This document shows, in pieces, positions 13,979 through 32,319 of a DNA stretch of 39,167 bases. The stretch comes from Candidatus Asbonarchaeaceae archaeon (GTDB taxonomy: Archaea; Nanohalarchaeota; Nanosalinia; Nanosalinales; Nanohalalkaliarchaeaceae), in contig JAXIOB010000004.1 of assembly GCA_034190585.1 (NCBI GenBank), positions 1 through 39,167 on the forward strand, written 5' to 3'. How positions within the stretch are numbered: position 1 is the first letter of the stretch; each line of letters begins with the position of its first letter. The position numbers and the translations under genes were made by a program. The notes beneath the pieces were generated by a model. It made no database searches, was not told where the DNA came from, and saw only the letters and a list, made by a program, of their open reading frames with translations.

Positions 13979-14827
13979 ATGAATACTTATTCAGTTCTCA
14001 TTCCGGTCCACAACGAGAGCGATACCATCGGCGACATTTTGGACAGCGTCATGGAGTCTGAGACTCCTGAACTGTTTGCTCAGGAGGATGTCGTGGTTGT
14101 AGCGTCAGGGTGCACCGACAGCACCATTGAAATCGTACGGGGATATGATGAGGTGACGCTAATTGAGGAAGAATCCCGGAATGGGAAGTCGGCGGCGATT
14201 CGCGAAGGACTTGAAAAGATTTCTTCTGACATTGTCGTGCTTTCGAGTGGAGATCTTCGCTGGGAGGATGGGACACTTGACGCGCTTCTTGAACCGTTCC
14301 GTGACGAGGCGGTAGGTGTCGCCACTTCCCGTCCGATACCGAACGATGATATTTCAGGTGTGACAAGATTGTACAATCAATCTGTGTGGGACATCCACCA
14401 TTATCTTTCCAAACGACAGCCTAAGGCAGGAGAACTTATCGCATTCCGGAACGTAATCAGAAATATTCCAGAAAAATGTGTCGCTGATGAGGAGTATATT
14501 GCTCAGAGTTTGGAACAAGAATATGAGAAGGTGTATGCAATGGATGCAGTGGTCCAAAATTTCCCGCCTGATTCCTTCGCCCAACTGTACAGACAGCGGC
14601 GTCGTGTCTTCCTAGGCCACCTAGACCTTCTTTCAAAGGAGGGGTACTGTGCGCCATCGGTACGGAACGGATTATTGTTTCGAAGTCTTTGGGAATATAT
14701 GCGGAAGGAGGGCTATGACTGGCGGCTAGCATTGGTTGCCGGTGTGGAACTTATTTGCCGTGGTGACGCTGTCCTACGGTATCTCGTGAACGGTGAGAAG
14801 CCTTACATATGGGAGCAGGTGGAATAA
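13979..14827 (+). CDS. Glycosyltransferase family 2
   Basis: The N-terminus is YSVLIPVHNESDTIGDILDSV. Further motifs are VVVVASGCTDSTIEIV and SRNGKSAAIREGL. It is the first gene of a four-gene + strand block. Confidence 0.75.
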   Translation: MNTYSVLIPVHNESDTIGDILDSVMESETPELFAQEDVVVVASGCTDSTIEIVRGYDEVTLIEEESRNGKSAAIREGLEKISSDIVVLSSGDLRWEDGTLDALLEPFRDEAVGVATSRPIPNDDISGVTRLYNQSVWDIHHYLSKRQPKAGELIAFRNVIRNIPEKCVADEEYIAQSLEQEYEKVYAMDAVVQNFPPDSFAQLYRQRRRVFLGHLDLLSKEGYCAPSVRNGLLFRSLWEYMRKEGYDWRLALVAGVELICRGDAVLRYLVNGEKPYIWEQVE

Positions 14828-14830
14828 CCT

Positions 14831-15790
14831 TTGGATTCCGATAAGTTGGATGAAATTTGGGAAGGAGATTCGTTTACGTGGTGTCAAAGCGGTGAGTTGC
14901 GTGACGGGTTAGAACATGCAGTATCCGGTGGGAAACGACTTCGAACGTTGCTCTGTCTACGTACATGCAATGCGCTCAATGGAGATCAAATGGAGGCTGA
15001 AGTGTTCGCACAGGCTGTTGAATCCTTGCACAATGCGACGCTTGTGCATGATGATATCCAGGACGGTGACGAGTTCCGGCGCGGTAAACCATCGATCTGG
15101 AAACAATATGGCAAGCCACAGGCAATTGGGATCGGAGAAGCACTATTCGCTGAAGGATACCGGCATATACTAGACCATCGTGACAGGTTCGGAACGTTGA
15201 AGTGTCTGCGGCTGCTTGAGATATACAATGAGGCCCAGCGGACCGTTATCGATGGGCAGGCAATGGATATCTCGTTTCGCAACCGCATGACGGTTTCAGA
15301 AGAGGAGTATATGCAGATGGCTCGGAAAAAGACCGGTGCACTTCTAACAGCCTCGCTCACTGGAGCTGCGGTAATAGCGCAATCAGACAGTGATGTGGTT
15401 GAACGACTGGAACAGGCTGGAAGATTTATCGGCCCGGCATTTCAAATACGAGATGACGTCATTGATATCAAGGAGAACGATAGCGGGCGTCGCGGAAATG
15501 ATATACGGGAGGGGAAACGCTCGCTTATCGTTGTTCACGCGTTTCAGCGATTATCGAAGGCCGATAAACAAGCTCTGGGTGATATACTTGACATGCCGCG
15601 TGACGCAACCACCGATGCGCAGGTAGACAGAGGTATTGAATTGATGGAACAGGCTTCAGCGGTTGAGGAAGCCCAAAAAACGGCCGAGAGATTGATCGAT
15701 GACGCCCGTGAACACCTTCGCGATGTTTCGGCTGATGGGTTCAAGGAGGTGTGTGATGTCGTCGATTTTTTGGTCGAACGCACATTTTAA
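14831..15790 (+). CDS. trans-Polyprenyl diphosphate synthase (GGPP synthase family; product chain length uncertain)
   Basis: The FARM is LVHDDIQDGDEFRRGKPS and the SARM is FQIRDDVID. It also has KTGALL and GKRS. The start is TTG, 3 nt after the upstream stop. Confidence 0.9.
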   Translation: MDSDKLDEIWEGDSFTWCQSGELRDGLEHAVSGGKRLRTLLCLRTCNALNGDQMEAEVFAQAVESLHNATLVHDDIQDGDEFRRGKPSIWKQYGKPQAIGIGEALFAEGYRHILDHRDRFGTLKCLRLLEIYNEAQRTVIDGQAMDISFRNRMTVSEEEYMQMARKKTGALLTASLTGAAVIAQSDSDVVERLEQAGRFIGPAFQIRDDVIDIKENDSGRRGNDIREGKRSLIVVHAFQRLSKADKQALGDILDMPRDATTDAQVDRGIELMEQASAVEEAQKTAERLIDDAREHLRDVSADGFKEVCDVVDFLVERTF

Positions 15791-15814
15791 ACCGTGACCT
15801 AATAACCATCCGAT

Positions 15815-16708
15815 GTGGCGCCTGTACAAATCAGTAAGTTCCTATCCCGAACTGCACAGCTCTACCGCGTACGAGATTGGAAATCAGCGGTAGGGCTTGC
15901 AGTTCTTGGATGGTTGACCACTGGCGGCCGTCCAGCTCACCTTGTCACCGCAACTGCAACATCAGCGCTTCTCTTGGCGTTTTCCTTTGCGTTTAATGAT
16001 ATTTGCGATGCCAGATACACCAATGAGTCAACTAGGTTAGGAGAGCTGTATCGGGATCAGCCGGAGGCGGCGACGGGGGTAGCAATCCTGCCGCTGGTGG
16101 CAGCTGTTCTGTTGCTATGGACGCTGCCTCCACGGGTAGCAGTGGCTGCTGCCGGGTTTGTCTTGTTGACGATACAGTATTCAGCTCCCCCGTTCCAGTT
16201 AACAGCCCGACCTGTGCTAGGGACAATCACTAATGTCATTTCAGCACTACTACTTATTCTGGTCGGGGCATCATCCCGTCCCCTTACACCAGCGACAGTG
16301 ATTCTGATACTCGTCTATACATGGTTCTTCATATTGGCAGAACTGTTACACCAGGTCGACGACTTTGACGAGGACCAGGCTGCCGGAAGATCCACCCTTG
16401 CAATTATTATCGGTCCTGAGCAGTTGCATAAAATCTTGAAAATCGGGTGTTTAGCTGTCTCTATCGTAGCTGCTATGACGGCGCTATTCCTCCCTGAGAT
16501 CGCCGTCCTACTCGTCGTGGCGTCCCTATTTAACCTTCTTCGGGTCGTTCGTCTAAACGGCCTCAGCCCTCTTGAGTTAGGGGACTGCAGGGAGCGGTTG
16601 TTTGGGACAGTAGAGGGCCTTGTATACCTCATTGTGCTCTCCATCCCACTGGCTGGTCAATCAACACAACAGGTTATTCCTGTTCTTGTAGGCGGTGGTG
16701 TAGGGTGA
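15815..16708 (+). CDS. UbiA-family membrane prenyltransferase (paralogue 1)
   Basis: Polytopic membrane protein. The first Asp motif is AFNDICDARY and the second is HQVDDFDEDQAAGRSTLA. The start is GTG. Its stop overlaps the next gene's start (GTGA at 16705-16708). Confidence 0.75.
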   Translation: MAPVQISKFLSRTAQLYRVRDWKSAVGLAVLGWLTTGGRPAHLVTATATSALLLAFSFAFNDICDARYTNESTRLGELYRDQPEAATGVAILPLVAAVLLLWTLPPRVAVAAAGFVLLTIQYSAPPFQLTARPVLGTITNVISALLLILVGASSRPLTPATVILILVYTWFFILAELLHQVDDFDEDQAAGRSTLAIIIGPEQLHKILKIGCLAVSIVAAMTALFLPEIAVLLVVASLFNLLRVVRLNGLSPLELGDCRERLFGTVEGLVYLIVLSIPLAGQSTQQVIPVLVGGGVG

Positions 16709-18498
16709 GAGCGCGCTTGAATTCGTGCATCAGGAAGTTGCGTCATAGCAGTTCTTACGTGGATAGGTATGACACGGTACGTGCCCTTCTTCTGTTGATA
16801 CTTTTGGTCGGAGCTGGCGTCCGCATAGCCAATCTAGGCGGGTCGCCCCTGTGGGCCGGAGAGGCGATGTGGGCAGAGACGTCAGCAGAACTGGTTGAGC
16901 AGCCCCGCGTCATTCCGCGGTACCTTGAAACCGGCAGACCTTTAACCGGTCACCCTCCGGTTTATTTCCACCTTAATACCCTGGCGTATATTGCCGGCGA
17001 CCCTGGAGAGGCAGCGCTGAGACTCCTGAGCGCCCTCGCCGGCGCCCTGACAGGTCTCATAATCTATTTACTTGGTAGACGGTTCTATGATGAGAATACT
17101 GGTCTGATGGCTGCCGCGTTCTTAGCGGTGTCTAGTAATCATGTTCTCTACAGTCGACAAGTGCATCCAACTGCCCTCGGCGTATTCTTGATGGCTTCAT
17201 CAGTCTATCTTGCGGTCAAGGCAGCTCAGACAGGAGAAACGAAGATGATTGGGGCAGCGGCTGGAACAGCACTGCTGGCTGTATCAACCCATTATATGGC
17301 CGCGGTATTGTTACTGCTCTTTCCCGCCATATTTTACATTGAGCAGGGATGGCGACAGTCTTTGACGGGAGAACGATCGTTGTTAGGGGGGTATATTGCG
17401 TTGGTCGTTGCAACGAGTATCCACGGTATCTGGAATATTGTCAATGCATACCCCGCCACGATGCTCAACCCTGTCCGTCGCTCAAGGACATCAGTGTTTC
17501 AATTTATCTCTGGTCTTCGGACTGAAATAGCGACTGTGGGCGGCGGTCTCTGGCGTCTTATCTCGTTCTACTTCTCTCCCTCGTTCCTTTATTTACCGCC
17601 GCTGTTGGCGCTTGTTCCTGTAACAGACGCAGGCCGCCCTAGCAGAGCATGGAGGGATAGTCCAGATGGGCCGGCTGCTGGCTCACGCATCCTGTATCTG
17701 TGGATTCTCATAACTGCTGCGATACTAACTGGTGTCGTCCTCCTTTACAGAGCCACTGGGTTGGATCCGGTTCGGTCTCATCCGTTCCTTGTTATCCCAT
17801 TGCTGCTGCTGGCCGCACGAGGCAGCGTTCTCCTATACCGTCGCAGCCAGGGTTTCGGGATTCTACCAGTTCTTTTGCTACTTACCTATCTCACCCATTT
17901 GCCGGCGGTGATGGGAATAGGCGTTGTCAATCCAGATATCGGGGGAAGTATGGTGCGTAACGCCATGTACACAGTCGACTCAGTGTACGTGGCCGTTGAT
18001 ACCGACCTCGATCAGGATCAATCCTTGCAAGAACTACAATACGGGCTGGTTGCGCCGAACGTTAGCGTCGAATTCTCTTATGATGTGTATTTGCCGAAGA
18101 TGTTCGTTGAGACAGAGTCTATCGTCTGTACTGGCGAGTATTACAGGCCGCTCTTCTGCTTTAATCGCCATCCAGTCGGATTCAACGACGCGCTGGATTG
18201 GGATAACGTGACAGCGTATCTTGATGCACAGATACAGGAGGGTGAGACCGTATACGCGTCCCGAGCGGGTCCTGTTCGCTACTATTCGGATTCACCGGTT
18301 TCTGTGACCGACCTGATCTGTAATATCGGACACCGAGGCTGCAACATTTCACGTGCGGTGGACAACGACACACCGTTCTGGATAGTTGTAACGGCCGACA
18401 GGTTTGCATGGCAGTTCACCTCAAACGAAAAAAGGAAATTGCAGAACTCCTGCAACAAGACCGTGCTTGACTATGTCTGGATCTTCCATTGTCGGTAG
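16705..18498 (+). CDS. GT-C fold membrane glycosyltransferase (ArnT / PMT_2 / GT39-like), paralogue 1
   Basis: The N-terminal loop is VRIANLGGSPLWAGEAMWAE. It also has LLGRRFYDENTGLMAAAFLAVSSNHVLYSRQ, more than 10 predicted TM helices and a C-terminal Cys-containing soluble domain. It is clearly paralogous to ORF 25697-27595. Confidence 0.75.
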   Translation: MRARLNSCIRKLRHSSSYVDRYDTVRALLLLILLVGAGVRIANLGGSPLWAGEAMWAETSAELVEQPRVIPRYLETGRPLTGHPPVYFHLNTLAYIAGDPGEAALRLLSALAGALTGLIIYLLGRRFYDENTGLMAAAFLAVSSNHVLYSRQVHPTALGVFLMASSVYLAVKAAQTGETKMIGAAAGTALLAVSTHYMAAVLLLLFPAIFYIEQGWRQSLTGERSLLGGYIALVVATSIHGIWNIVNAYPATMLNPVRRSRTSVFQFISGLRTEIATVGGGLWRLISFYFSPSFLYLPPLLALVPVTDAGRPSRAWRDSPDGPAAGSRILYLWILITAAILTGVVLLYRATGLDPVRSHPFLVIPLLLLAARGSVLLYRRSQGFGILPVLLLLTYLTHLPAVMGIGVVNPDIGGSMVRNAMYTVDSVYVAVDTDLDQDQSLQELQYGLVAPNVSVEFSYDVYLPKMFVETESIVCTGEYYRPLFCFNRHPVGFNDALDWDNVTAYLDAQIQEGETVYASRAGPVRYYSDSPVSVTDLICNIGHRGCNISRAVDNDTPFWIVVTADRFAWQFTSNEKRKLQNSCNKTVLDYVWIFHCR

Positions 18499-18647
18499 AG
18501 GAAATTATCCTACGTTTCATGATGAATCAAATTTTTCCCTCCCAAAGAAGGCATCTCTACCGATTATTTAGACAGGTTTCGGTCACAAAGAACGGGCGCC
18601 CTGCCCCTAAAAATTCTACGATCTAAGGCACTGAAGGTCGAAAGATG

Positions 18648-18675: not shown

Positions 18676-19863
18676 ATGGTTAGTGAGAGTGAATTCGAGC
18701 AATACGTAGGACGACCAGGATATTACCAAAGTATGAAGGTGAGTGGGTCTGAGGGGAATTATCTGGTTTCTCAGGAGGGTAGAAAATTTATTGATCTTAT
18801 CGCGGGGTGGTGCGTTGTCAATGCAGGATACGGGCGTGAGGAGATTATCTCTCGCATGGCGGAACATGCCGAACAGGCGGCCTACGTGAAGACGTCCTAT
18901 ATTGACGAGCGAACTGTGCAATTGGCCGAGCGGCTAGCTCAGCTAGCACCTGGCAATCTTCGGCAAACGTTTAGAGTGCCCAGCGGCACCGAAGCTGTAG
19001 AGATTTCAATCAAGGCTGCAAGGCTTTACACTGGGAAAGACACCATAATAAGTAACGAATTGGCGTATCACGGGACAGCGTATGGTGCGATGAGTGCAGG
19101 ATATGATGAACTAGGACAGCCATTCACTCCGTTAGATCCGGGGTTTGATCGGGTACCAGTTCCAGACTTTACAGATGCGTGGTACGACGAGTTTGCGGAG
19201 CGGATGTCGAAGGGGGACGTAGCTGCATACCTCTCAGAGACAGTTCTCACCCATCAGGGAGTCGTTATTCCGCCGAATGATCACTATGAACGGGTGAGTG
19301 AAATCTGTAATGCGAACGATGCACTTCTGATACTGGATGAGGTAGCGAACGGGTTTGGACGGACAGGGAAAATGTTTGCCGCCGACCACTATGGCGTGAC
19401 TCCGGATATAATGGCGCTCGCAAAGGGGATGAGTTCCGGGTACGCTCCCGCTGGTGGGGCTATCATGGCCCCAGATATCGGGGAGGAGATGTCTACCACT
19501 AAAATGAGCGCCTACTCAACGTTTGGCTGGGTTCCCGCAGCTGTTGGAGCTGTGCAGGCGAATATCGACATTTTACAGGACGAAGGACTTTCTACGGGTC
19601 AGGAGAATCTCGGGGATACCCTCGAGGAGGAGCTGATTCGTATCGACGGTGTGCGAGAGGTTCGACGGAAAGGATTGCTTGTTGGCGTCGTGCTTGAGGA
19701 TTCAACTGCCGCCGATGCGCGGGCGGCCGCATCACAGAACGGTGTTCTTGCCGGAACGACCAATGATGGACGCGTTCTCCTTCTTGCCCCGCCGCTCAAC
19801 GTTGAAGAGGCCTATGTGGCGGAAGGCATCCAGCGCCTCGAGAACGCGATCGAGGTGAGGTAA
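18676..19863 (+). CDS. Class III (omega-type) PLP-dependent aminotransferase
   Basis: Motifs are GWCVVNAGYGREEI, PSGTEAVEISIKAAR, LILDEVANGFGRTGKMFA and PDIMALAKGMSSGYAP (PLP lysine context). Confidence 0.9.
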   Translation: MVSESEFEQYVGRPGYYQSMKVSGSEGNYLVSQEGRKFIDLIAGWCVVNAGYGREEIISRMAEHAEQAAYVKTSYIDERTVQLAERLAQLAPGNLRQTFRVPSGTEAVEISIKAARLYTGKDTIISNELAYHGTAYGAMSAGYDELGQPFTPLDPGFDRVPVPDFTDAWYDEFAERMSKGDVAAYLSETVLTHQGVVIPPNDHYERVSEICNANDALLILDEVANGFGRTGKMFAADHYGVTPDIMALAKGMSSGYAPAGGAIMAPDIGEEMSTTKMSAYSTFGWVPAAVGAVQANIDILQDEGLSTGQENLGDTLEEELIRIDGVREVRRKGLLVGVVLEDSTAADARAAASQNGVLAGTTNDGRVLLLAPPLNVEEAYVAEGIQRLENAIEVR

Positions 19864-20669: not shown

Positions 20670-21500
20670 TTGAATCTGAAGCGTTTCTATAGGGTTTCTG
20701 ATTGGTATCCAAATATGGGGATCGCGGTAGTCGGTGTTCTAAGTGCAGGTGTTGGCGCTGGAAACGTGGTTTCAGCCGCTGTTGCGTTGGTCCAGGTGTT
20801 CCTTGTTCAGCTCCACTCGTTCAGTATGAATAACTATTACGACGCCAGATATTGGAAAGAAAATAACTACATACAGGAGCTATTAGAGCACGGGACGCCT
20901 CGTTGGAAAATATATTTTTACGGCCACATACCTCTTCTCTTGGCGGCGCTCTTTTTACCGGTTTCAGGGATATTCACACTACTTCTTCTGGGATATGCCG
21001 CCCTCTTCTACGTATACCAGGGCCCGCCGCGACTGAAGATGCACTGGGCCTCCTCTCTGGTGCTGAACGCGATCCCGCTCGGACTGATAATATACCTTCA
21101 TCCTTATCTGGTTACGTCAGGACGTCTCGAAACCACAGGAATATTCTTCGCGGTGATGTTCACATTCTACATGGCATTCTTCGAGATCGCACATCAACTT
21201 CAGCACGATAAGATAGAGAGCAGTCATTCATTGGTCGACGTATTTGGGCGGGAAACCTCTGTTAAAATAGGGATGATCGCCCTAACCATCCCTGCGCTAC
21301 TTGGACTGTTGTTGTATTTCGTTGCAACCCTGCCGGCGTCGATAAGTGCAGTAGCGGTAGGATTCACAGCTTTGCGGCTTTATACACTCATCGATATCGG
21401 AACTGATCCCGACGCCGTGCAAACTATAAGAGGCTCTTGGCATAAGTTCTATTCTGCATTTGAGGGCGCAATTTACGTAATTTTACTGGCTGTGATGTAG
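20670..21500 (+). CDS. UbiA-family membrane protein, divergent paralogue 2 with eroded Asp-rich motifs
   Basis: Polytopic. It aligns by eye to paralogue 1: SMNNYYDARYWKEN versus AFNDICDARYTNES, and EIAHQLQHDKIESSHSLVDVFG versus ELLHQVDDFDEDQAAGRSTLAIIIG. The start is TTG; an internal Met lies at 20715. Confidence 0.55.
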   Translation: MNLKRFYRVSDWYPNMGIAVVGVLSAGVGAGNVVSAAVALVQVFLVQLHSFSMNNYYDARYWKENNYIQELLEHGTPRWKIYFYGHIPLLLAALFLPVSGIFTLLLLGYAALFYVYQGPPRLKMHWASSLVLNAIPLGLIIYLHPYLVTSGRLETTGIFFAVMFTFYMAFFEIAHQLQHDKIESSHSLVDVFGRETSVKIGMIALTIPALLGLLLYFVATLPASISAVAVGFTALRLYTLIDIGTDPDAVQTIRGSWHKFYSAFEGAIYVILLAVM

Positions 21501-21582: not shown

Positions 21583-22530
21583 TTAGACAATATTATCCCA
21601 TAAGTCACCCATGATACGGCGTTCGGCGATTTCGCTATACATCTCTACACCGTCAGTAGTAGAATCTGCGGTATCTGTCGAGGTAATACCTCCAAACTGT
21701 GTTCTCTCGGGATCTAATGTTACCTGTTTCAGTTCTGTATTTCCGAACTCTGGGTGAAGGCAAAGGGCAGCAGCAATTGGGTCAAAGAGAACACCTCTGT
21801 ATGAGGTGGGAAATATCTGTGATATGTGGCCTCGAACCGATTCGTAGACCATCAAGCTTGGCGGATAGGTACCTGTGCTCAGCCAAGATGAGGGTATAAC
21901 GTGCTTGATTGTCTGTAGCACCGCCCGCCTACTAATACCGCCGAGGGGGGGATACAGTGACTGACAGATGTCGCCTGTAACAAGTCTCTGCTCACCCGGT
22001 GCATCAAGAACTTTTTTTGCGGCTCTTGGATCTTTCCAGAAATTGAATTCAGCGCCATGCGGGGTGTTGCCATACCCGATGCCGCCACCCATGATTGTAA
22101 CAGTTTGATACCCTTGTAGTAAACTGTGGTGCTTGTCTATCGCTCGCGCGATATTGGATAAGGGACCTATTACGAGTAGATCGATTCCATCGTTCATATT
22201 ATTGAACAGAAATTCTGTAGAGAGTCCGTAGACGTCGCAATCGGTTCCGTTAAATGTTATGCCGCCGAGTCCGTCGTCTCCGTGGATGTCCCTACTATCG
22301 TGTTCAGGTCCTTGCTGATCGACAACCCCCTTGTTTATAGGAATATTGAGGTCGAGTGCATCGGCGATATACGCAGCATTCTGTAATACCTGTTCTCGAC
22401 CCACATTCCCGGGGACCGTGTTTATACCGACAATTTCTGCACAGTCTGCATTAGCAAGATAGGTGAGTGCCAGGAAATCATCGACACCGGCGTCAGTTTC
22501 GATTAATATTCTCTTTGGTTCATCGCTCAT
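21583..22530 (-). CDS. Inosine/uridine-preferring nucleoside hydrolase family protein
   Basis: The N-terminal metal/ribose-binding motif is ILIETDAGVDDFLALTYL. The protein also contains LLVIGPLSNIARAI, and it is 315 aa long. Confidence 0.85.
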   Translation of the reverse strand: MSDEPKRILIETDAGVDDFLALTYLANADCAEIVGINTVPGNVGREQVLQNAAYIADALDLNIPINKGVVDQQGPEHDSRDIHGDDGLGGITFNGTDCDVYGLSTEFLFNNMNDGIDLLVIGPLSNIARAIDKHHSLLQGYQTVTIMGGGIGYGNTPHGAEFNFWKDPRAAKKVLDAPGEQRLVTGDICQSLYPPLGGISRRAVLQTIKHVIPSSWLSTGTYPPSLMVYESVRGHISQIFPTSYRGVLFDPIAAALCLHPEFGNTELKQVTLDPERTQFGGITSTDTADSTTDGVEMYSEIAERRIMGDLWDNIV

Positions 22531-22622
22531 ACGTCATTAAGGCTCCATTAGATAAGAACTACACGTGGAAGAACAAAAAAGGTACTTCCCGATTTATTTA
22601 CAGCCGGATCGGCGAGACTCGC

Positions 22623-23267: not shown

Positions 23268-23375
23268 TCTATTGTAAAATTCTGTTTGCTTATAAGCCTT
23301 TCCCTTAGCAATCAGTCGACATCATATCACCATCAGGTTTATGTTTAATTTTTTCAAAGGCGAAAAATATTCGCG

Positions 23376-25028: not shown

Positions 25029-25700
25029 ATGGTAGTTGAGAGATTTGAAAGGGTTTCAATACCACTTTTGGCGGTTTTGGTTATTACTTTCGGCGCTATT
25101 GCAGCGATAAATTCTTCCCCCCAAGTTTCTGATGGCGATAATTTGTCATCACAAGAAATTGTATCTAAAGATCCTAATTTGTCAGCATTCCAGGATCTCG
25201 GATCTCCTGAGGATGGTGAACGGGTGCGTTGGTTGGCGACCGATGAAGTTGGTCCCTGGCACATTGATGGGAGCGCGGGAATCACAAGTTTAGATGCTGG
25301 CAACCGAGTAGTGCTTCATCCGACGGGAGGTAATTGGAGGAATTCAGTTGACTCTGCAATCAGACAAACTGTGGAGCTTCCATCAGGTGAACCGCTGACC
25401 GCTGTTTTAAAGGCTAGGAATCCTGCTTCTGAATGGCGGTCCACGAAAAGTCGCTGTATTAACAGTCTTGTTACACTTGCAGTGGCAAAGAATGATGTGG
25501 GAAGCACCCCTGTTTACAATCGAACTATTGTAGGAGATAAACCAAGAAAGATTACGATGGACGTATCCCGGTTCGCAGGTGAAACTGTGCAGTTGGCCGC
25601 TCTGGCTGACGCTGCAGGTAAAGGATGTGGAAGATGGAACGCTGAATTCACGCTAATATCTTCGCTGTACATACAAACGGAGGAGGACACCGATTTATGA
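25029..25700 (+). CDS. Membrane-anchored secreted protein of unknown function; paralogous module to ORF 22623-23267
   Basis: The N-terminal TM is IPLLAVLVITFGAIAAI. The protein also contains IRQTVELPSGEPLTAV...RC...VSRFAGETVQLAALADAAGKGCGRWNAEF, and its stop overlaps the next start (ATGA at 25697-25700). Confidence 0.5.
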   Translation: MVVERFERVSIPLLAVLVITFGAIAAINSSPQVSDGDNLSSQEIVSKDPNLSAFQDLGSPEDGERVRWLATDEVGPWHIDGSAGITSLDAGNRVVLHPTGGNWRNSVDSAIRQTVELPSGEPLTAVLKARNPASEWRSTKSRCINSLVTLAVAKNDVGSTPVYNRTIVGDKPRKITMDVSRFAGETVQLAALADAAGKGCGRWNAEFTLISSLYIQTEEDTDL

Positions 25701-27595
25701 ATAGGTCAATCGTTCGTGCCTTGCGATTCCGAGGTGTTCAGTTTTTCAAACTGGTCAAGAATCGTTACGACCAATTTAAAGCAGCAGTTTTCAATCATTC
25801 GACCCGTGTTTTTATCTCCGGTATAGTTATCATCGCGCTCGTACTGCGGGCATGGAATCTTGGTCGTCGACCGATGTGGACGGATGAGGCCGTTTACGCC
25901 GTTATGGGCCAGAAGATAGCTAAAGGCGCATTGCTCCCTGTATGGCCGCTTTCTGAGCGTGTATTTGCTGGACAACCGCCGCTAGTTATCCATCTGATGT
26001 CTATTCCGTATCATATAGTCCAGTCTGTTCCGTCGGCAGTACATTTTAGGATGGTAGCAGTATTGGCCGGTGTCGCGACAGTATATGTATGCTATCGAAT
26101 TGGCGCCTCTATATATAATGAGAAGGTGGGCCTGATAGCCGCTTTCCTAATCGCAGTATCGCCTAATCATCTTCTCTACTCACGACAAGCTCTTCCCCAC
26201 TCTATCGGCATCCTTGCCTTCGTCTCAGTCGCATATGTCCTCATCAAATACTGTCGTCACGGAGAAAAAAAGTATATCTGGGCGACGGGAGCAGGGTCGG
26301 TGCTCGCAATAAGTCTCCACTATCTCAATGTTTTACTCATACCGTTGGTAGCTCTAACACTTATTTGGCGGTACATCTCGGAGATCAAAAAATTTAGATA
26401 TCGACGGCGATGGGCCGCTTGGGGTGCGATAAATATCGGATCTGCTGCCGCATATATCATCTATTTCATGAACTTTACTGGGGGCGCACGGACGGGAAGA
26501 AATCCTTTCCGAGGAGAAGTATCCATCCAGAACCCGGTCACTGTGGTATCCGCGCTCTCGGAATTTCTGTCGAGGCAAATCGAATGGATAGTCTCTCTTG
26601 GTATTGCCTCGTATGCAGCGAAAGGAATCGATTTCCTGAGATATTACGGGAATTTATCTAACCTGTTCCTCCCTGTTTTCCTGGCAGGTGTTGGCGTATA
26701 TTTCAGTGCGACGGAGAAAAGGGGTATTCTGTGGTATCCAATCGCCCTGTTTGCTTCAGTATTTGGCGTATTGATTTTCATCGTCTATCCGTTCTACCAG
26801 AAAATAGGGATTTCGCCGGTCCGTTCACACTCATTTCTCATACCGCCAATGTTCATTTTAGCCGCTTATGGTATAGAGAAACTGAACGGATGGAAAAATT
26901 TAGGCTACATCTTATTGGCCTTATTTACAGTCGTGTCGATGCTTCATTTCCCACTTATCGCGACTGGAAATGTAGTGGCGGTGACAACGGAAGGATACCA
27001 TGAGTTCACGGTTGAGATCGGTAAATCTATTTTCAATACGGTCAATACTAAACTGCTGATTATTACAGGGATGAGAGGGCTCGAGTCAAGGATTAGAGCG
27101 CAGGAGTATTTCAAGCAGACATCGTCGATTGTTTGTAGTGGAGAGCATTACAGGCCGTTGTTCTGCTTTTCTCGCCATCCCGTCGGATATAATGATGCGA
27201 AAAATTGGCAACAGCCAGTCAATCATATCTTAACGCAAGGAAAGGTTCCAAATAAGCTAGTTGCTTCCATGTTTGTATCGCATGTCGCGCCTGTCCTGTA
27301 TTATTTGCAACGCGCCGATCCAATTACACGTCTTAGGTATGGATATGATTTCAGCCATCAATATCGTGGAAACGGAAATAACTCGATTCAATCGTTGTCT
27401 TGTAATATAGACAAGCGACAGTGCAATGTTACAGCATGGTTGAGGGGTGAGAAGTCTGTATGGTTCGTTCTGGATAACGTGCGGTCTAAATATCAGTTGA
27501 ACCAGTGGGAAACGGAATATATGAAGAGGCGATGTAAAACCAAAAGATTTTCGTATACTGAGGTGATAAAGTGCACTGGTAATAGGACAGAATGA
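25697..27595 (+). CDS. GT-C fold membrane glycosyltransferase (ArnT / PMT_2 / GT39-like), paralogue 2
   Basis: It has LRAWNLGRRPMWTDEAVYAV (the DE loop motif) and RIGASIYNEKVGLIAAFLIAVSPNHLLYSRQ. The C-terminal domain shares CSGEHYRPLFCFSRHPVGYNDAKNW with paralogue 1. Confidence 0.8.
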   Translation: MNRSIVRALRFRGVQFFKLVKNRYDQFKAAVFNHSTRVFISGIVIIALVLRAWNLGRRPMWTDEAVYAVMGQKIAKGALLPVWPLSERVFAGQPPLVIHLMSIPYHIVQSVPSAVHFRMVAVLAGVATVYVCYRIGASIYNEKVGLIAAFLIAVSPNHLLYSRQALPHSIGILAFVSVAYVLIKYCRHGEKKYIWATGAGSVLAISLHYLNVLLIPLVALTLIWRYISEIKKFRYRRRWAAWGAINIGSAAAYIIYFMNFTGGARTGRNPFRGEVSIQNPVTVVSALSEFLSRQIEWIVSLGIASYAAKGIDFLRYYGNLSNLFLPVFLAGVGVYFSATEKRGILWYPIALFASVFGVLIFIVYPFYQKIGISPVRSHSFLIPPMFILAAYGIEKLNGWKNLGYILLALFTVVSMLHFPLIATGNVVAVTTEGYHEFTVEIGKSIFNTVNTKLLIITGMRGLESRIRAQEYFKQTSSIVCSGEHYRPLFCFSRHPVGYNDAKNWQQPVNHILTQGKVPNKLVASMFVSHVAPVLYYLQRADPITRLRYGYDFSHQYRGNGNNSIQSLSCNIDKRQCNVTAWLRGEKSVWFVLDNVRSKYQLNQWETEYMKRRCKTKRFSYTEVIKCTGNRTE

Positions 27596-27693: not shown

Positions 27694-28582
27694 ATGAACT
27701 GTGAGATATGCGATAGTCCAATGCGAGTAGCCTATTCTGGGAGAGATTGCGTATTTACCAGTACACCGGACCGGAGATTTTCGATTTTTCAGTGCTCAGC
27801 ATGTGGGTTCGGTAAGCGACTTCCTCAACCTGATAATCTCCAGAAGTATTATCCCGAAGAATATTATGATTATTTTTCAGTAATAAGGGAGCGTGAATAC
27901 AGCCTGCGATTTCGATGCTGGTACGAACGCAAATTCTCCCCGAATCTACTGCTTCCTCAGACTAAAGGTAGACTATTAGAAATAGGATTCGGGGGAGGGT
28001 ACAGGCTGGCGGAGTTAGATAGCGATGGGTGGGATGTGGTGGGAATTGATTCGAACGAGGATGCTATTGAGAAAGCTGCTGAAAAGTCTAACGCCGAGCT
28101 GCTACAAGGAACTCTGACTGATACGGAACCGGAATTTTCAGCTGGCGAATTTGACCTGGTATTGATGGAGATGACTCTCGAACATATCAAGAACCCGTTT
28201 CAGGCCCTCAAAGAAATTAAACGGATATTAGATTCGGAAGGATTTGTGGTCATAAAATGTTCAAATATTGACGCCTTATTTCGAAAAATTTTTTCCAAAG
28301 TACTGGCAGGGGTACGATATTCCCAGACACTTTTACTATTACACGCCAAGAGCACTAGAGAGTTTGATGGAAAAAATGGGATTCTAATTGGAAGATGAGA
28401 GCCATGACTACCGCTCGACGCAATTAACTGCAAACTCCAACAAATTCCTTAGTGACGCTTATGATATTAAAATTCGGCCTACTATCTTAGGTGGAATACT
28501 TTTCACATTAGGAATTATGTCCGGTGCGTTAGGTAAACCTAGTTATTTTGTACACCGATGTAGATTAGGTGACAACGATTGA
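27694..28582 (+). pseudogene. Class I SAM-dependent methyltransferase with an N-terminal Cys4 zinc ribbon, disrupted by one frameshift and one in-frame TAA
   Basis: The zinc ribbon is CEICDSPM...CSACGF. SAM motif I is LLEIGFGGGYRLAEL. After FRKIF (an A5T6 run at 28284-28294) the family-typical sequence continues in frame 2 (PKYWQGYDIPRHFYYYTPRALESLMEKMGF). It then hits TAA at 28385-28387 and continues in the same frame as the track ORF 28388-28582. Confidence 0.65.
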
Positions 28583-28653
28583 GTCCATAATATAAAAATC
28601 TAAGACATATGAATTTACCAGAATATTGGAGAAAAAATTTCCCCTCTCATTTT

Positions 28654-29367
28654 TTACTGATCAAGTCGGCCTAGCATTTCCCTAACGATTTCCGGGTCAA
28701 GCGAAGCTTCTCTATCTGTGCCTGTGCACACAGCGCCGCGGACACCAAAGATATCAAATCCGATGTCACGTATTTTACCAACTTGTTCGATGTCCAGTGA
28801 CCCAGCAGCCGCAGTCGTAAGATTCTGCTGTTTCGCTTCCTCCACGATTTCCTGGAGTGTTTGAGGCTCTGTATGATCGAACAGCGTTTTGCCATCTTTC
28901 TCCGCAGTATCAATCATCACTGCGTCAGCCCCCGATTTGGTAGCTATCGTGGGGAGGTCGACCGGGTTGACGGAGTTAAACCGTTTGTGATCGGCGTACC
29001 CGCCGGCAACGAGCTTGGTTGAAGATCCATTCAGACCCTCGCTGGCAGCTCTGAGAAGCTCTATTGCATCCTCAATCGTTTCTGGTCCTTTCAAACCGAC
29101 CTTAATGTAATCGGGGTTGTACTGCAGTGCACCATGCACCGCTAGGCTAACAGTTCCCGGGAGATGCGGGACGTCCCCAACAGCGATGCTGGTACTAGCT
29201 GTAGAAGGCGCTGCGTCCATGATTCGCTCAATCCTATGCGCTGGTTGCGCTCCCAGCGAACCTTCACCAGGATTTTTGATGTCGATGATATCAGGCGGTG
29301 TATCCGCAATATTGGCTGCCTCTTCTGGAGTCTTGACGGTAACAAGTGATTTCAAAATCCTATTCAC
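28654..29367 (-). CDS. mfnB: (5-formylfuran-3-yl)methyl phosphate (4-HFC-P) synthase, MfnB family (UPF0264/DUF556)
   Basis: Blocks characteristic of MfnB as I recall the M. jannaschii enzyme: PDIIDIKNPGEGSLGA, VGDVPHLPGTVSLAV, DYIKVGL, AGGYADHKR, VMIDTAEKDGKTLFDH, AAAGSL and DIFGVRGAVCTG. The length is 237 aa. The Schiff-base Lys contexts (DIKNP, IKVGL) are retained. Confidence 0.88.
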   Translation of the reverse strand: MNRILKSLVTVKTPEEAANIADTPPDIIDIKNPGEGSLGAQPAHRIERIMDAAPSTASTSIAVGDVPHLPGTVSLAVHGALQYNPDYIKVGLKGPETIEDAIELLRAASEGLNGSSTKLVAGGYADHKRFNSVNPVDLPTIATKSGADAVMIDTAEKDGKTLFDHTEPQTLQEIVEEAKQQNLTTAAAGSLDIEQVGKIRDIGFDIFGVRGAVCTGTDREASLDPEIVREMLGRLDQ

Positions 29368-29368
29368 C

Positions 29369-29971
29369 TCATTGGATTGTGGTTGGAGGCCTCAGCTGAA
29401 ATATGTTGTGGCATCGACCCCCTGCTGATTCTACATACCTCGACGCTGATCGCATCAGTCTCTCGTCTGGATTGGCGGTTGGTCGGCCAGTGTAGTCGCC
29501 GGACCCAGATTTGACTTTTTGCAGTGCGTCATCTATCACTAAGTCATCTCGAAGAGCGAACACAGCTGTCGCGACGGCTACGGATCTGCTCTCACCTGCG
29601 GCGCAGTGAAGGAGAATTTTTCTCTCATTGCCGATTTCTCTTACCACTGCCGACGCAGCACTATCAAACATTGTCTGTGCATTGCATCCGTCTCGTAACG
29701 GACGGTGGATATCCGTGGTAGCTGTGGAACTTGCAGTCAGCGTCACGACCGTCTCAATTCCCAGTTCGTCGTGCCGGCTCTCCTGGCGAGCATCTACCAG
29801 ATCGCCGATGTATAAGTGATCTGAGAGCCGGTCCATAGATCGGCACCGGTCCCGACGAATACGGGCACGTTGAAGCGGTAAGGCGATAGACTCTATGAGC
29901 CAGTTCGACGGCCTCAAATCCATACGAACATATCTCGCCATATATTTATGTATCCTCGGTTGCGCGAACAT
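29369..29971 (-). CDS. Cys-based (HCX5R) dual-specificity / PTP-superfamily phosphatase
   Basis: The active-site loop is LLHCAAGESRSVAVATAVFAL. The protein also contains DHLYIGDL, and its stop lies 1 nt upstream of the mfnB start, so the two genes look co-transcribed. The likely true start is ATG 29836 (MDRLSDHLYIGDL); the 5' extension to 29971 is Arg-rich and dubious. Confidence 0.75.
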   Translation of the reverse strand: MFAQPRIHKYMARYVRMDLRPSNWLIESIALPLQRARIRRDRCRSMDRLSDHLYIGDLVDARQESRHDELGIETVVTLTASSTATTDIHRPLRDGCNAQTMFDSAASAVVREIGNERKILLHCAAGESRSVAVATAVFALRDDLVIDDALQKVKSGSGDYTGRPTANPDERLMRSASRYVESAGGRCHNIFQLRPPTTIQ

Positions 29972-30012
29972 CGTAGTGTCTCTTAATCGGTTTCGGAGGG
30001 AAGGGTGAGAAA

Positions 30013-31776
30013 ATGGCAGGGATCAGCGGTGTCTGGAGTCCGAACGGAGAATCGGGGAAAGAAGCTATACTACCGATGCTGCGTCCGATGACGAGATCCG
30101 GTAGGAGCTGTGAAGTATTCTCAGCTGAGGATATGCACCTTGGTGTCCGCTCCTCTGAGTCCTGCGGATTCGATGATGGAAACCGTATTGTGGCGGTAGA
30201 CGGAGAAGTATATAACAAAAAAGCACTTTGCGAAACTTCCTTCAGCGACGATGATTCTACTGAGCGAATCGTAGCTCAGGCATACGAGGAACAGGGGGAG
30301 GATCTTTTCAACGAACTAGCGGGAGATTATGCGCTCGCCCTGTTGGACTGTGACCGGTCGAAACTGATTTTAGACACGGGATTAGCGAATAACAAAAATT
30401 TTTTCTACAGTCTCATGGGTTCCGACCTGATTTTCGCTTCCGAGCTCAAGGGGCTGATGCAGGCAGGCGCAATCGACCCATCGATTGACAGGTCGTCCAT
30501 CGGAAATCTTTTGACGTATGGCCACGTTCCAGCCCCCTTTACGCTGTTCGAAGGCCTTCGGAGACTGCCTCCGGGCGCCACTGCGATTACGACTGAGGCA
30601 GGGATGACGCTTGTGCCGGCTGGAGAGCCAAGGCAATACCCGCCTATCGAGGATTTGCCAGCGGCCGTTACATCCGTCGAACAGTCGCTCAAGGGGGCGA
30701 TCAACCGTCGTCTGAGTCAGAGCGATGATATAGGGATGATGCTGTCTGGCGGGATAGACTCTGCACTTCTCACATCATATCTCGATGAGATGGTGTCTGG
30801 TCCAGTGTCGACATTCACCGTGGGATTCGGTGAGGATCAACAGTACGCTCACAGCGTATCTGAACACGTAGGGACCGATCATTCGGAGAAAATCCTGTCG
30901 GCTGATGAGATGATCGGCCAAATACCCAAGGTGCTGTGGTGGCGCGAGTATCCTTCGAAAGATCCGGGGGTTTCACCTCTGTATCACATCGACAGCTTGA
31001 CCGACCGCACGGAGTTGATATGGGGGCAAGGCGCTGAGGAAGTTGTTATGGGGCGGCAAGATTATGTGGCGTTACACGCACTAAGTTCCGTGCCGCGGCG
31101 GCAGGCGATATCGCGCGTGTTCCACGACGCCACCCCTCCAGTGAGAAATCGGTCAAAACTGCACAGGATGTACAACCTTCTCCGTTCCCGCGGCCCGGCC
31201 GAATCGTTTACGACATTCCGCGACTCAGGCCCAAAAGATAGACAGAACTGGGCCGCGAGTGACGTGCATGTAGGGAATACATCACGGGTGCGAGCCCCCA
31301 AGAATATTCACCATCCGTGCAGCCAGTATGGGTGGACATCTCTGATAAACGGGTTCCTGAGCGATGTATTTCCTGCTCCAGAACGCCGGTTGATGAGCCC
31401 GTTTCTTGATTCTCAAGTTCTTGATACAGGTTATCGTATCTCATCACGGTTGCATCTTCGGGATGGACGGCCGCGCTACCTTCTTCGAAAACTTGGGGCA
31501 AAGCGTCTTCCTCAACAAGTCACTGGTCGCGGCCGGGATTCATGGGCGTCTCAGACCCGTAATGTTGTTTTGAATAATTCGTCAATCCTTCTTGCAATCG
31601 CGGATCGTCTCCAGGATCGCAATATTATCACTGAATCAGCGCGGACAATCGTGCAGAGGCAGCCACACCGCTGGGGAAAGAATCTTTGGACATTAGTTAA
31701 TCTTGAACTATTTCTAGAGATTTTCATCGATGAAGACTTCGAGGAGGAGCCGCCCGGGATCGATTATTTTATTTAA
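30013..31776 (+). CDS. Asparagine synthase (AsnB)-family amidotransferase/adenylating enzyme lacking the N-terminal Cys nucleophile
   Basis: The N-terminus is MAGISGVW where canonical enzymes have MCGI. It has VDGEVYN where canonical enzymes have NGEIYN. The PP-loop MLSGGIDSALLTSYL is intact. The length is 587 aa. Confidence 0.85.
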   Translation: MAGISGVWSPNGESGKEAILPMLRPMTRSGRSCEVFSAEDMHLGVRSSESCGFDDGNRIVAVDGEVYNKKALCETSFSDDDSTERIVAQAYEEQGEDLFNELAGDYALALLDCDRSKLILDTGLANNKNFFYSLMGSDLIFASELKGLMQAGAIDPSIDRSSIGNLLTYGHVPAPFTLFEGLRRLPPGATAITTEAGMTLVPAGEPRQYPPIEDLPAAVTSVEQSLKGAINRRLSQSDDIGMMLSGGIDSALLTSYLDEMVSGPVSTFTVGFGEDQQYAHSVSEHVGTDHSEKILSADEMIGQIPKVLWWREYPSKDPGVSPLYHIDSLTDRTELIWGQGAEEVVMGRQDYVALHALSSVPRRQAISRVFHDATPPVRNRSKLHRMYNLLRSRGPAESFTTFRDSGPKDRQNWAASDVHVGNTSRVRAPKNIHHPCSQYGWTSLINGFLSDVFPAPERRLMSPFLDSQVLDTGYRISSRLHLRDGRPRYLLRKLGAKRLPQQVTGRGRDSWASQTRNVVLNNSSILLAIADRLQDRNIITESARTIVQRQPHRWGKNLWTLVNLELFLEIFIDEDFEEEPPGIDYFI

Positions 31777-31803
31777 AAATCCAGTTAATGCAGGTCTCGA
31801 TAG

Positions 31804-32319
31804 ATGGATATTTCAACATTTGATCGCCTCCTCCGGGATGCCCTTCTCCACCTCCGTGAGACGTCGATAGACAATAAAGGACCGGTCGCTGCAGGACTTG
31901 AATCCCAGGGGAAGACGGTATACGCCGTGTCCGAGAAGAGAGGGGAGAACTGGCTGCATGCTGAACACAAGGTTCTGCAGAAGTTTACGTCCAGGCATGG
32001 AGCCATCGGTGATGACGCCGTCATGGCTGTGTCGTTATCGCCCTGTAAATCTGAAACATTATCACGGCATGGTCCGCCTTGCACTGAGTTACTTCGTGGC
32101 GAAGGTCTTGGAATTGATGTTAGCGTTGACAGGATTCATGTTGGGCTCGTTGACGAGAAGGAGGCAACACTTGATCAATACCGTAGAATGGGGTTCGATA
32201 TCACCTGTACAGAGTCGGAACAGCTTCGAACGTGCTGCCAAAGACTTGAAACGTTCTTCGAACTTCCGCACGAGCAGCGGGATTCCGCATTCATCAACCA
32301 GGCGCTCAGGCAACTGTGA
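31804..32319 (+). CDS. Cytidine/deoxycytidylate (RibD-like) zinc deaminase-fold protein
   Basis: The zinc ligand pattern is HAEHKVL ... SLSPCKSETLSRHGPPCTELL (H-A-E ... PC-x10-C). The length is 171 aa. Confidence 0.65.
   Translation: MDISTFDRLLRDALLHLRETSIDNKGPVAAGLESQGKTVYAVSEKRGENWLHAEHKVLQKFTSRHGAIGDDAVMAVSLSPCKSETLSRHGPPCTELLRGEGLGIDVSVDRIHVGLVDEKEATLDQYRRMGFDITCTESEQLRTCCQRLETFFELPHEQRDSAFINQALRQL

Follow-up and report, generated by a model that had tools for sequence, protein, structure and literature searches.

What is the function of a gene for the furan-forming enzyme of methanofuran biosynthesis, MfnB, in an archaeon that is not a methanogen? This question is raised by a 39,167-nucleotide stretch of DNA from Candidatus Asbonarchaeaceae archaeon (GenBank assembly GCA_034190585.1, contig JAXIOB010000004.1; the whole stretch is called the window hereafter), in which homologues of MfnB and of the kinase MfnE share an island with a class III aminotransferase, two UbiA-fold membrane proteins (UbiA1 and UbiA2) and three PMT_2-type glycosyltransferases of the GT-C class. 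In the initial annotation, these genes had been combined with genes for isoprenoid carrier supply, two family 2 glycosyltransferases (GT2), a phosphatase, an amide ligase, a nucleoside hydrolase and a deaminase into a single surface-modification pathway. All gene classes named there were recovered in the Pfam and NCBIfam scans that we used for gene calling in the window. When compared with related loci, the core of the proposal, comprising the aminotransferase, the kinase, UbiA2 and MfnB, was conserved together with GT-C genes, whereas carrier supply, nucleoside hydrolase and deaminase were not. These results suggest a model in which the island is a hypervariable cell-surface locus of low guanine plus cytosine (GC) content in a Nanohaloarchaeon, with a rewired furan branch of methanofuran biosynthesis at its heart.

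A kinase-UbiA2-MfnB triad is conserved in two domains of life

We surveyed 80 MfnB loci from species-representative genomes by local phmmer and jackhmmer searches on six-frame open reading frames (ORFs), and further loci were reached from the UbiA2 side by a metagenome scan and an exhaustive profile search. A triad consisting of the MfnE-like kinase, UbiA2 and MfnB was found in 13 distinct loci (the window, L004, L007, L010, L011, L013, L014, L015, L091, L092/93, L096, L097 and L101; L numbers are our locus labels), which are phylogenetically related, with many of them stemming from related metagenome-assembled genomes (MAGs) and several lying on short contigs. Besides the window, the carriers are Nanohaloarchaeota MAGs (L004/L012, L011, L013 and L015), Omnitrophota (L010, from Ca. 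Saelkia tenebricola, and L014) and other metagenome contigs. The loci L091, L092/93, L096, L097 and L101 were added from the UbiA2 side; starting from UbiA2 in metagenomes, the triad was present in 5 of 6 loci, of which about four are independent (L092 and L093 are near-identical, and L095 is the same contig as L014).

In most triad loci, the kinase and UbiA frames or the UbiA and MfnB frames overlap or lie only a few bases apart, and the kinase adjoins or overlaps UbiA2 in 13 loci. Because this core recurs in other genomes, its co-localization is far beyond chance, and we are highly confident, on the basis of sequence and gene order, that the conserved triad is real. The link between Mfn-type genes and a UbiA-family enzyme that the initial annotation had seen in a single genome therefore extends to Nanohaloarchaeota and Omnitrophota.

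It could be argued that the genes of a horizontally acquired glycosylation island were assorted by accident and share no common pathway. The deviant GC content and mosaic structure of the island would agree with such an origin, as would the fact that its isopentenyl phosphate kinase (IPK), prenyl synthase, nucleoside hydrolase, GSDH-type protein and deaminase are unconserved elsewhere. However, accident does not account for a core triad with an accessory set in 13 distinct loci and two domains of life, often with overlapping frames, and we regard this explanation as very improbable.

MfnB and the kinase are related to the methanofuran enzymes

The window MfnB matched M. jannaschii MfnB (MJ1099, 4rc1) at 3e-49, and its residues D29, K31, K89, D153 and K157 align with the catalytic residues of that enzyme and are invariant or nearly so in 22 relatives. 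Asp25, Lys27, Lys85 and Asp151 of the M. jannaschii protein are said to have been identified as catalytic by Wang et al. in 2015, and Lys155, also among the aligned positions, has been named as a catalytic residue (PMC11365854). With these residues conserved, the window MfnB looks active. In a neighbor-joining tree without bootstrap, the MfnB proteins of triad loci formed two groups apart from the methanogen clade. Two adjoining MfnB-like ORFs in L011 (4518-5792), of which one is shorter than the other, point to either tandem duplication or a frameshift. A radical S-adenosylmethionine (SAM) gene was observed directly beside MfnB in L016 (Elusimicrobia), L035 (Flavobacteriaceae), L014 and L092/93, which hints at further uses of MfnB outside methanofuran.

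For the kinase, the MfnE model NF040622 was the sole NCBIfam match (positions 3-203 of 211), and 7qrh was the best match in the PDB (1e-17). It has the motifs GGG..AD.VR, H..AI..MD and SW[DE]VTSDSI in common with the canonical MfnE of L064 and L085. Judged by these features, the kinase is an MfnE homologue, which goes beyond the mere likeness in chemistry previously proposed.

UbiA2 is found in the place of MfnF

In the canonical clusters annotated with NCBIfam, MfnE is paired with MfnF. This holds for L064 (Bathyarchaeota, MfnB-MfnA-MfnD-MfnF-MfnE), L085 (Altiarchaeales, with MfnB, MfnE, MfnF and MfnD) and L030 (Halanaerobium congolense, MptA-MfnB-MfnF-MfnE). Halanaerobium is a fermentative Firmicute, and methanopterin- and methanofuran-type genes were seen in L077 as well as in L030.

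Using local hidden Markov models built from the proteins of canonical loci, we looked for MfnF, MfnA and MfnD. MfnF was present in 8 of the 8 loci having an MfnE-like gene but no UbiA2. Within the loci searched, none of the three was detected in the window, in line with the initial annotation, or in any UbiA2 locus. Our main argument is derived from this pattern: because the distributions of MfnF and UbiA2 are complementary and the kinase always stands beside the respective partner, we lean towards the view that UbiA2 consumes the kinase product, as far as can be judged from gene content.

Alternatively, the triad might make a soluble, methanofuran- or methylofuran-like one-carbon (C1) carrier, with UbiA2 substituting for MfnF, or with MfnF and the tyramine branch encoded elsewhere, and with the GT-C genes as mere neighbors. 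In favor of this, no other role is known for homologues of MfnB and MfnE, many triad loci also contain a linked Orf17-type HisA/HisF-like gene, as needed for methylofuran, and the non-methanogens Halanaerobium and Bathyarchaeota carry canonical mfn clusters. However, every UbiA2 locus is devoid of MfnF, MfnA and MfnD, UbiA2 is predicted to be an integral membrane protein, the GT-C link is seen across phyla (L010) and inside single operons (L013), and the locus that holds the cassette is hypervariable and of surface type. Moreover, the hosts are genome-reduced fermentative symbionts: Nanohaloarchaeota have been described as fermentative and host-dependent, and are reported to be devoid of lipid (mevalonate), nucleotide and cofactor pathways (PMC6642349), and DPANN archaea are devoid of a complete archaeal Wood-Ljungdahl pathway (PMC9982363). 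Overall, we consider a soluble C1 carrier quite improbable, and the triad probably makes something other than methanofuran.

The UbiA2 family is small: among 1.84 billion cluster representatives, the exhaustive profile search retrieved 112 at E <= 1e-3. This search was needed as a word-based protein search with UbiA2 gave just 7 relatives. The family is characterized by the motifs SFSMN[DN]YYD and E.xHQ..H. In UbiA enzymes, Mg-diphosphate is bound by two Asp-rich motifs, NDxxDxxxD and DxxxD. The first Asp-rich motif of UbiA enzymes, N[DN]xxD, reads NNYYD in the window UbiA2 and NDICD in UbiA1, a divergent paralogue within the same family (26% identity, with the family motifs common to both) that keeps DDFDED as its second motif. 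The AlphaFold2 (AF2) model of UbiA2 (predicted local distance difference test, pLDDT, 85) has the nine-helix UbiA fold, and Foldseek matched it with probability 1.0 to 4tq4 (AfUbiA), 7bpu (digeranylgeranylglyceryl phosphate synthase, DGGGPS), 8j8j (the phosphoribosyltransferase Rv3806c), 4od4 and UBIAD1, with TM values of 0.80 for 7bpu and 0.69 for 8j8j. The predicted structure does not separate a prenyltransferase-like from a phosphoribosyltransferase-like function.

Both functions have to be weighed against consumption of the kinase product. As a conventional prenyltransferase, UbiA2 would prenylate the electron-rich furan ring or its hydroxymethyl group to give a lipid-anchored furan, serving as membrane lipid or cofactor, and no GT-C donor would arise. 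Use of prenyl diphosphates is the commonest UbiA chemistry, and the closest structures are AfUbiA with bound geranyl or dimethylallyl diphosphate and the ether-forming DGGGPS. The window also encodes IPK and a prenyl synthase, with UbiA1 directly after the synthase, and the recurrent phosphatases of dual-specificity (DSP) and HAD type could release a furan alcohol. Nevertheless, the other UbiA2 loci all lack prenyl synthase and IPK, the MfnE-like kinase would be left without a role despite its tight coupling, and neither the replacement of MfnF by UbiA2 nor the GT-C association would be explained, which makes conventional prenyl transfer unlikely in our view.

Phosphoribosyl transfer would instead imply that the UbiA proteins are polyprenyl-phosphate phosphoribosyltransferases (PPPRS) using phosphoribosyl pyrophosphate (PRPP) in an ordinary three-component pentofuranosylation, and that MfnB and the kinase serve another purpose or supply precursors. 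UbiA with a phosphatase and a GT-C bearing a carbohydrate-binding tail is a described architecture (PMC11127046) and 8j8j is among the fold matches; the nucleoside hydrolase of the window could supply ribose, the recurrent HisA/HisF-like proteins are binders of phosphoribosyl substrates, and L094 and L098 have UbiA without MfnB. By sequence, however, the family profile reached AfUbiA and DGGGPS and gave no match to 8j8j at E <= 10, and the required N-D-x-x-D-x-x-x-D motif is degenerate in UbiA2 (NNYYDARYW, with Asn in second position and the fourth Asp absent). Furthermore, no epimerase genes are present, and pentofuranosylation offers no reason for a cross-phylum kinase-UbiA-MfnB operon or for the complementarity with MfnF. 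The chances of this alternative thus appear as small as those of the C1 carrier.

Amination, amide-forming and phosphatase genes accompany the triad

As noted in the initial annotation, the class III aminotransferase abuts the kinase, with zero gap. It contains the pyridoxal phosphate motifs DEV..GFGRTG and LAKG, and its orthologues in L004, L011 and L097 (58% identity) are also located directly upstream of the kinase. In these three loci and the window, it never occurs together with a HisA/HisF-like PF00977 gene, which is found near the triad or UbiA in L007, L010, L013, L014, L015, L091, L092/93, L099 and L101. This alternation at triad loci suggests that the two proteins serve one and the same step. 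In Methylorubrum, the PF00977 protein Orf17 is needed for methylofuran synthesis with no role assigned, and an MfnC-type transaminase has not been identified (PMC8141765). The Orf17-type protein may provide the amination step.

An AsnB-like amide ligase is encoded in the window, L010, L013, L091, L096 and L101, and also in L094 and L098. The window copy starts with MAGISG and has no Cys2, the N-terminal nucleophile for hydrolyzing glutamine in the asparagine synthase B family, which is consistent with the dead glutaminase site previously proposed; Cys2 is likewise missing from the copies of L010, L091, L096 and L098, the L013 copy is ambiguous (MGKICG), and the copy of L094, where no MfnB is seen, keeps MCGICG. 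At L004 (6794-8020), L011 and L015 (10633-11964), an AMP-binding-like protein of 408-443 amino acids is found in its stead. Both are adenylate-forming enzymes, and their alternation suggests a conserved amide-forming step, in which the AsnB-like ligase possibly uses an amine other than glutamine-derived ammonia, perhaps the furan amine.

The Cys-phosphatase is co-directional with mfnB at a distance of 1 nt, in agreement with the coupling suggested earlier, and has the CX5R motif HCAAGESRS. An orthologue is present in L013 (42% identity), and a HAD phosphatase occupies the same position in L014. Candidate roles are the conversion of polyprenyl diphosphate to polyprenyl phosphate or the trimming of an intermediate. 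The SAM-dependent methyltransferase also has an orthologue in L013 (39% identity), and further methyltransferases are encoded in L004 and L098.

GT-C genes are associated with UbiA2

For the detection of GT-C genes we used an iterated local PMT_2 model; direct phmmer searches with the GT-C proteins of the window missed most of the GT-C genes in related loci. Among UbiA2-family loci with a length of 7 kb or more, 10 of 14 contained PMT_2-type GT-C genes vs 0 of 62 other MfnB loci (Fisher p = 1e-9, a value that ignores relatedness and is therefore inflated, and that comes from a model biased toward this GT-C type). The co-occurrence of mfnB with UbiA and GT-C genes in other genomes, by which the initial annotation had proposed to check its hypothesis, is thus found. 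In L013, kinase, UbiA, MfnB and GT-C genes are consecutive, with no GT2 gene, and in L010 (Omnitrophota) a PMT_2 gene directly precedes the kinase.

The GT-C proteins have 7-12 hydrophobic segments. In the first extracytoplasmic loop, a motif W-x-D-E is found in GT-C #2 (W-T-D-E) and its relatives and reads W-A-G-E in GT-C #1, which may be catalytically altered on account of this exchange of D-E to G-E. The gene for UbiA1 overlaps that for GT-C #1 by 4 nt, and this second UbiA/GT-C pair is specific to the window. GT-C #1 and GT-C #2 have a Cys-rich C-terminal motif in common, SIVC[TS]GE[YH]YRPLFCF.RHPVG.

Two of the GT-C genes are accompanied by genes for membrane-anchored proteins. The hyp223 and GT-C #2 ORFs overlap by 4 nt, and in L004 and L011 a homologue of hyp223 is likewise encoded ahead of GT-C genes. 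The AF2 model of hyp465 (pLDDT 69) was matched by Foldseek to BcsB, CBM51 and Cry-type domains (1e-10 to 1e-5). GT-C fusions in L015, L004, L013 and L007 carry repeats of its beta-sandwich module at their C-termini, with the hyp465 repeats aligning to residues 598-1052 of the L015 GT-C, and the divergent hyp465/PMT_2 pair is also present in L102.

A putative route from furan phosphate to the cell surface

In the route that we propose, MfnB would condense two glyceraldehyde-3-phosphate molecules to the phosphate of 4-(hydroxymethyl)-2-furancarboxaldehyde (4-HFC-P), which the class III aminotransferase, or the HisA/HisF-like Orf17-type protein elsewhere, would convert to the aminomethyl furan phosphate F1-P in an MfnC-like step carried out by another fold class. 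The kinase would then turn F1-P into the diphosphate F1-PP, which UbiA2 may bind in the way UbiA enzymes bind prenyl diphosphates or PRPP. With loss of diphosphate, the furfuryl group would be moved by UbiA2 to a nucleophile in the membrane, for which polyprenyl phosphate is the likeliest candidate, and the lipid-phosphate-linked furan would be flipped and used by the GT-C enzymes on a surface glycan or protein, with GT-C #2 as a candidate for the extracytoplasmic transfer. The AsnB-like ligase could introduce an amide bond, either using the furan amine or at the acceptor. For such a rewired furan branch, leading from Mfn enzymes via a furfuryl diphosphate, UbiA2 and a membrane acceptor to surface delivery by GT-C, we see roughly an even chance on present sequence evidence.

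Polyprenyl phosphate is favored as acceptor because GT-C enzymes, as a family, need lipid-phosphate-linked donors. It is further favored because UbiA-family phosphoribosyltransferases act in this way with PRPP and are encoded together with a phosphatase, a flippase and a GT-C tailed by a carbohydrate-binding module (CBM) (PMC11127046). By this analogy, the use of a polyprenyl-phosphate-linked donor by the GT-C enzymes is possible, although we put it forward only tentatively. The proposal in its most specific form, in which the symbionts build a polyprenyl-phosphate-linked aminomethyl-furan, a new UbiA subfamily replaces MfnF and a GT-C moves a non-sugar group to the surface, appears rather unlikely to hold in all its parts.

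In addition to the inflated p value indicated above, several observations speak against the proposed route. The scores of MfnB (225.7 bits with NF002573, equivalog cut-off 341) and of the kinase (94.9 bits with NF040622, cut-off 300) fall below the cut-offs of the respective families, and the substrates of both may differ. The lysine of the kinase KxGG motif is replaced by Asn (VVNVGGA) in the window, L004 and L097; this exchange belongs to the aminotransferase-bearing subclade, and both the remaining triad kinases and canonical MfnE have Lys. UbiA2 has E.xHQ..H in place of the second Asp-rich motif and NNxxD as motif 1 in the window, and its similarity to 8j8j does not exceed that to DGGGPS or AfUbiA. 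For the phosphatase, the route offers no obvious substrate, and no GT-C gene is located within 10 kb in L014 and L092/93. Finally, L099 has kinase and UbiA with no MfnB seen, and in L094 and L098 a UbiA2 relative stands beside the AsnB-like gene with neither MfnB nor kinase seen in the available DNA (7.4 kb in the case of L098). From the latter pairing, the UbiA2 family may accept more than one head group. L094 also carries a HisA/HisF-like gene and two GT-C genes.

The island in the window and its host

Based on GC content, the island extends over approximately 23 kb (12039-35185), with gene values of 0.43-0.54 vs 0.62-0.67 in the flanks (Table 1). The range of 13979-32319 assigned initially contains the genes described there with the exception of IPK, one GT2 and the third GT-C, which lie outside, and was therefore too narrow. 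The island starts directly after a gene for an RFC-type ATPase and a pilus-like operon, which consists of a PilB-type ATPase with PilB3_C, two T2SSF proteins, the pilin-like proteins DUF7287/7288/7289/7266 and a LamG-domain protein, and which is syntenic in L097. The C-terminal part of a thermosome/Cpn60-TCP1 gene (43-561) is cut by the window start. Since neither the tRNA nor the Rfam scan gave a match in the window, the island is not explained by an RNA element or by an integration site linked to a tRNA.

Table 1. Position, strand and supporting evidence of the features annotated in the window
Feature	Position	Strand	Evidence or remark
Archaeal type IV pilus-like operon	2920-10804 and 1328-2923		Upstream of island
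GT2 fused to GtrA/DPMS membrane domain	12039-13115	-	Pfam/NCBIfam
Isopentenyl phosphate kinase (IPK)	13120-13899	-	NF040647, 176.7 bits (above equivalog cut-off 120)
GT2	13979-14827	+	Pfam/NCBIfam
trans-Prenyl diphosphate synthase	14831-15790	+	PF00348, 207 bits
UbiA1	15815-16708	+	PF01040, 53.5 bits (cut-off 34.2)
GT-C #1, PMT_2 type	16705-18498	+	PF13231, 67.2 bits (cut-off 26.1)
Class III (omega-type) aminotransferase	18676-19863	+	PF00202, 254 bits
MfnE-like small amino-acid-kinase-fold kinase, 214 aa	19864-20508	+	NF040622, 94.9 bits
UbiA2, UbiA-fold membrane protein	20670-21500	+	PF01040, 39.7 bits (cut-off 34.2)
Nucleoside hydrolase	21583-22530	-	Pfam
hyp214, membrane-anchored protein	within 21583-24944	-	Transmembrane anchor
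GSDH-type beta-propeller, membrane-anchored	within 21583-24944	+	Pfam; transmembrane anchor
hyp223, membrane-anchored extracytoplasmic protein	25029-27595 (pair with GT-C #2)	+	Overlaps GT-C #2 start
GT-C #2, PMT_2 type	25697-27595	+	PF13231, 44.0 bits (cut-off 26.1)
SAM-dependent methyltransferase	27694-28398	+	PF08241, 66 bits
MfnB, 4-HFC-P synthase homologue	28654-29367	-	PF04476, 227.8 bits (cut-off 22.4)
Dual-specificity (Cys, DSP) phosphatase	29369-29971	-	PF00782, 32.2 bits (slightly under cut-off 33.5)
AsnB-like adenylating amide ligase, dead glutaminase site	30013-31776	+	PF00733, 129.5 bits
Weak cytidine/dCMP deaminase-like protein	31804-32319	+	PF00383, 27.1 bits (cut-off 25)
hyp465, divergent from GT-C #3	32345-35185 (pair with GT-C #3)	-	Transmembrane anchor and three beta-sandwich modules
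GT-C #3, PMT_2 type	33737-35185	+	PF13231, 39.4 bits (cut-off 26.1)
DUF6541 membrane protein	35298-37286		Beyond island edge

The host is a Nanohaloarchaeon, i.e. a DPANN symbiont, and not a haloarchaeon. The window MfnB is identical in sequence to a deposited protein of a "Candidatus Nanohaloarchaea archaeon" MAG. A haloarchaeal host or a chimeric contig was considered in view of the flank GC content of 62-67%, and was rejected as the flanks are syntenic with Nanohaloarchaea MAGs. They share 76% nucleotide identity over 8 kb with one of these, L097; PilB and RFC are 90% and 78% identical, respectively, to the proteins encoded there, and the identity between RFC of the window and of Nanohaloarchaeota QJJ-7 is 74%. 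In L097, this chromosomal site is occupied only by the aminotransferase-kinase-UbiA-MfnB cassette, directly after RFC and with a GC content of 0.68, so that the wide system envisaged in the initial annotation is not conserved at this site. Between the window and L097, cassette proteins are 49-57% identical vs 60-90% for flank proteins. Since the cassette proteins are far more divergent than those of the flanks, the site behaves as a hypervariable, exchanged surface locus.

The block 12039-15790 (GT2 with GtrA, IPK, GT2 and prenyl synthase) is absent from L097 at this site and may supply lipid carriers or ordinary lipid-linked sugars. The prenyl synthase is of the trans type (IdsA/GGPPS-like) and no cis-prenyltransferase of the dolichol-carrier kind. 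In its sequence NATLVHDDIQD, position -5 relative to the first DDxxD is Ala, as in long-chain prenyl synthases. IPK and trans-prenyl synthase are present although the lineage is reported to be without mevalonate pathway, and they may reflect salvage of isoprenoid phosphates. The deaminase-like protein is without any NCBIfam match.

No counterparts of IPK, prenyl synthase, UbiA1/GT-C #1, nucleoside hydrolase, hyp214, GSDH or deaminase were found at related loci, and the GT2 genes, with weak matches (24-32% identity) in L091, L092/L093 and L099, are not conserved with the triad. Apart from hyp214, for which nothing points to a place in the pathway, we regard all of these as island cargo outside the conserved pathway. 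Membership of the nucleoside hydrolase, the deaminase and GSDH in the pathway was considered and rejected for lack of conservation at related loci. The inclusion of IPK, prenyl synthase, GT2s, nucleoside hydrolase and deaminase in one pathway could accordingly not be upheld.

Comparison with known systems

In the literature searched, we found no paper linking MfnB or MfnE to UbiA or GT-C enzymes and no description of the cassette. The cassette is a member neither of the canonical methanofuran cluster, as the partnership with MfnF is missing, nor of the PPPRS systems, as it does not have their signature, and there is a real chance that it makes a new class of product. MfnB and MfnE have so far served as markers for the synthesis of methanofuran or methylofuran. 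If the proposed route holds true, they would gain a second, structural use beyond these C1 cofactors, which would caution against reading these genes in non-methanogens as a trace of C1 metabolism. In its most specific form, with a polyprenyl-phosphate-linked aminomethyl-furan, the route would for the first time take the furan chemistry of methanofuran beyond C1 cofactors and would supply the first GT-C donor other than a glycose, and the Orf17 HisA/HisF-like protein would be the long-missing bacterial counterpart of MfnC. The alternation of this protein with the aminotransferase provides a lead on two questions of methylofuran synthesis, namely the role of Orf17 and the missing transaminase. 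Independently, UbiA2 represents a defined new UbiA subfamily with about 100 representatives among 1.8 billion proteins. As the surface of an episymbiont is its interface with the host, recognition of the host could plausibly be determined by a hypervariable surface locus beside a pilus operon.

The furan branch of methanofuran synthesis (MfnB, MfnC, MfnE and MfnF in M. jannaschii; Orf22/Orf21/Orf9 in Methylorubrum) is similar to the cassette in the catalytic residues of MfnB, in a full-length MfnE-homologous kinase with an amination gene beside it, and in the Orf17-type HisA/HisF-like gene of related loci. It differs in that the coupling enzyme of the cassette would be a UbiA-fold integral membrane protein in place of MfnF, and in that the tyramine branch (MfnA/MfnD) is missing from the cassette loci. 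MfnC is a class I/II aminotransferase, in contrast to the class III enzyme of the cassette. In addition, the cassette is carried by non-methanogenic ultrasmall symbionts and has GT-C enzymes and an AsnB-like ligase with a dead glutaminase site as neighbors.

Three-component pentofuranosylation and the mycobacterial decaprenylphosphoryl arabinose (DPA) pathway rely on a UbiA-family phosphoribosyltransferase (Rv3806c, or ORF15 of C. youngae), a phosphatase, a flippase and a CBM-tailed GT-C (GT136, Emb/Aft) (PMC11127046, PMC10994848). Akin to these systems, the cassette loci combine a UbiA-fold gene with a phosphatase and with GT-C enzymes whose beta-sandwich modules are extracytoplasmic, and UbiA1 overlaps GT-C #1. 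Flippase-type proteins are represented by a GtrA domain in the window and by MOP flippases in L015, L007 and L099. By analogy, the logic would also be alike, with a diphosphate-activated head group being placed onto a lipid phosphate. However, UbiA2 is not an orthologue of the phosphoribosyltransferases, given the missing sequence match to 8j8j and the degenerate motif, the phosphatase is of DSP type, an epimerase is absent, and the head-group genes are Mfn-type, so that the transferred group would be a furfuryl group and not a sugar.

A more distant resemblance is found to the ArnT/Arn and Gtr systems, which have PMT_2-type GT-C enzymes, a GT2 fused to a GtrA/DPMS domain and an aminotransferase for an amine head group in common with the window. 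In contrast to these, the aminotransferase is class III and not of the DegT/ArnB type, the candidate lipid-linking enzyme is UbiA-fold and not a GT2, and conservation with the triad does not extend to the GT2 genes. With respect to UbiA2 itself, AfUbiA (4tq3-4tq6), for which we know of no natural substrate, and DGGGP synthase (6m31/7bpu) are the best matches in sequence and fold. They differ from UbiA2 in sequence, with 13-22% identity, and in the second Asp-rich motif, which E..HQ..H replaces in UbiA2.

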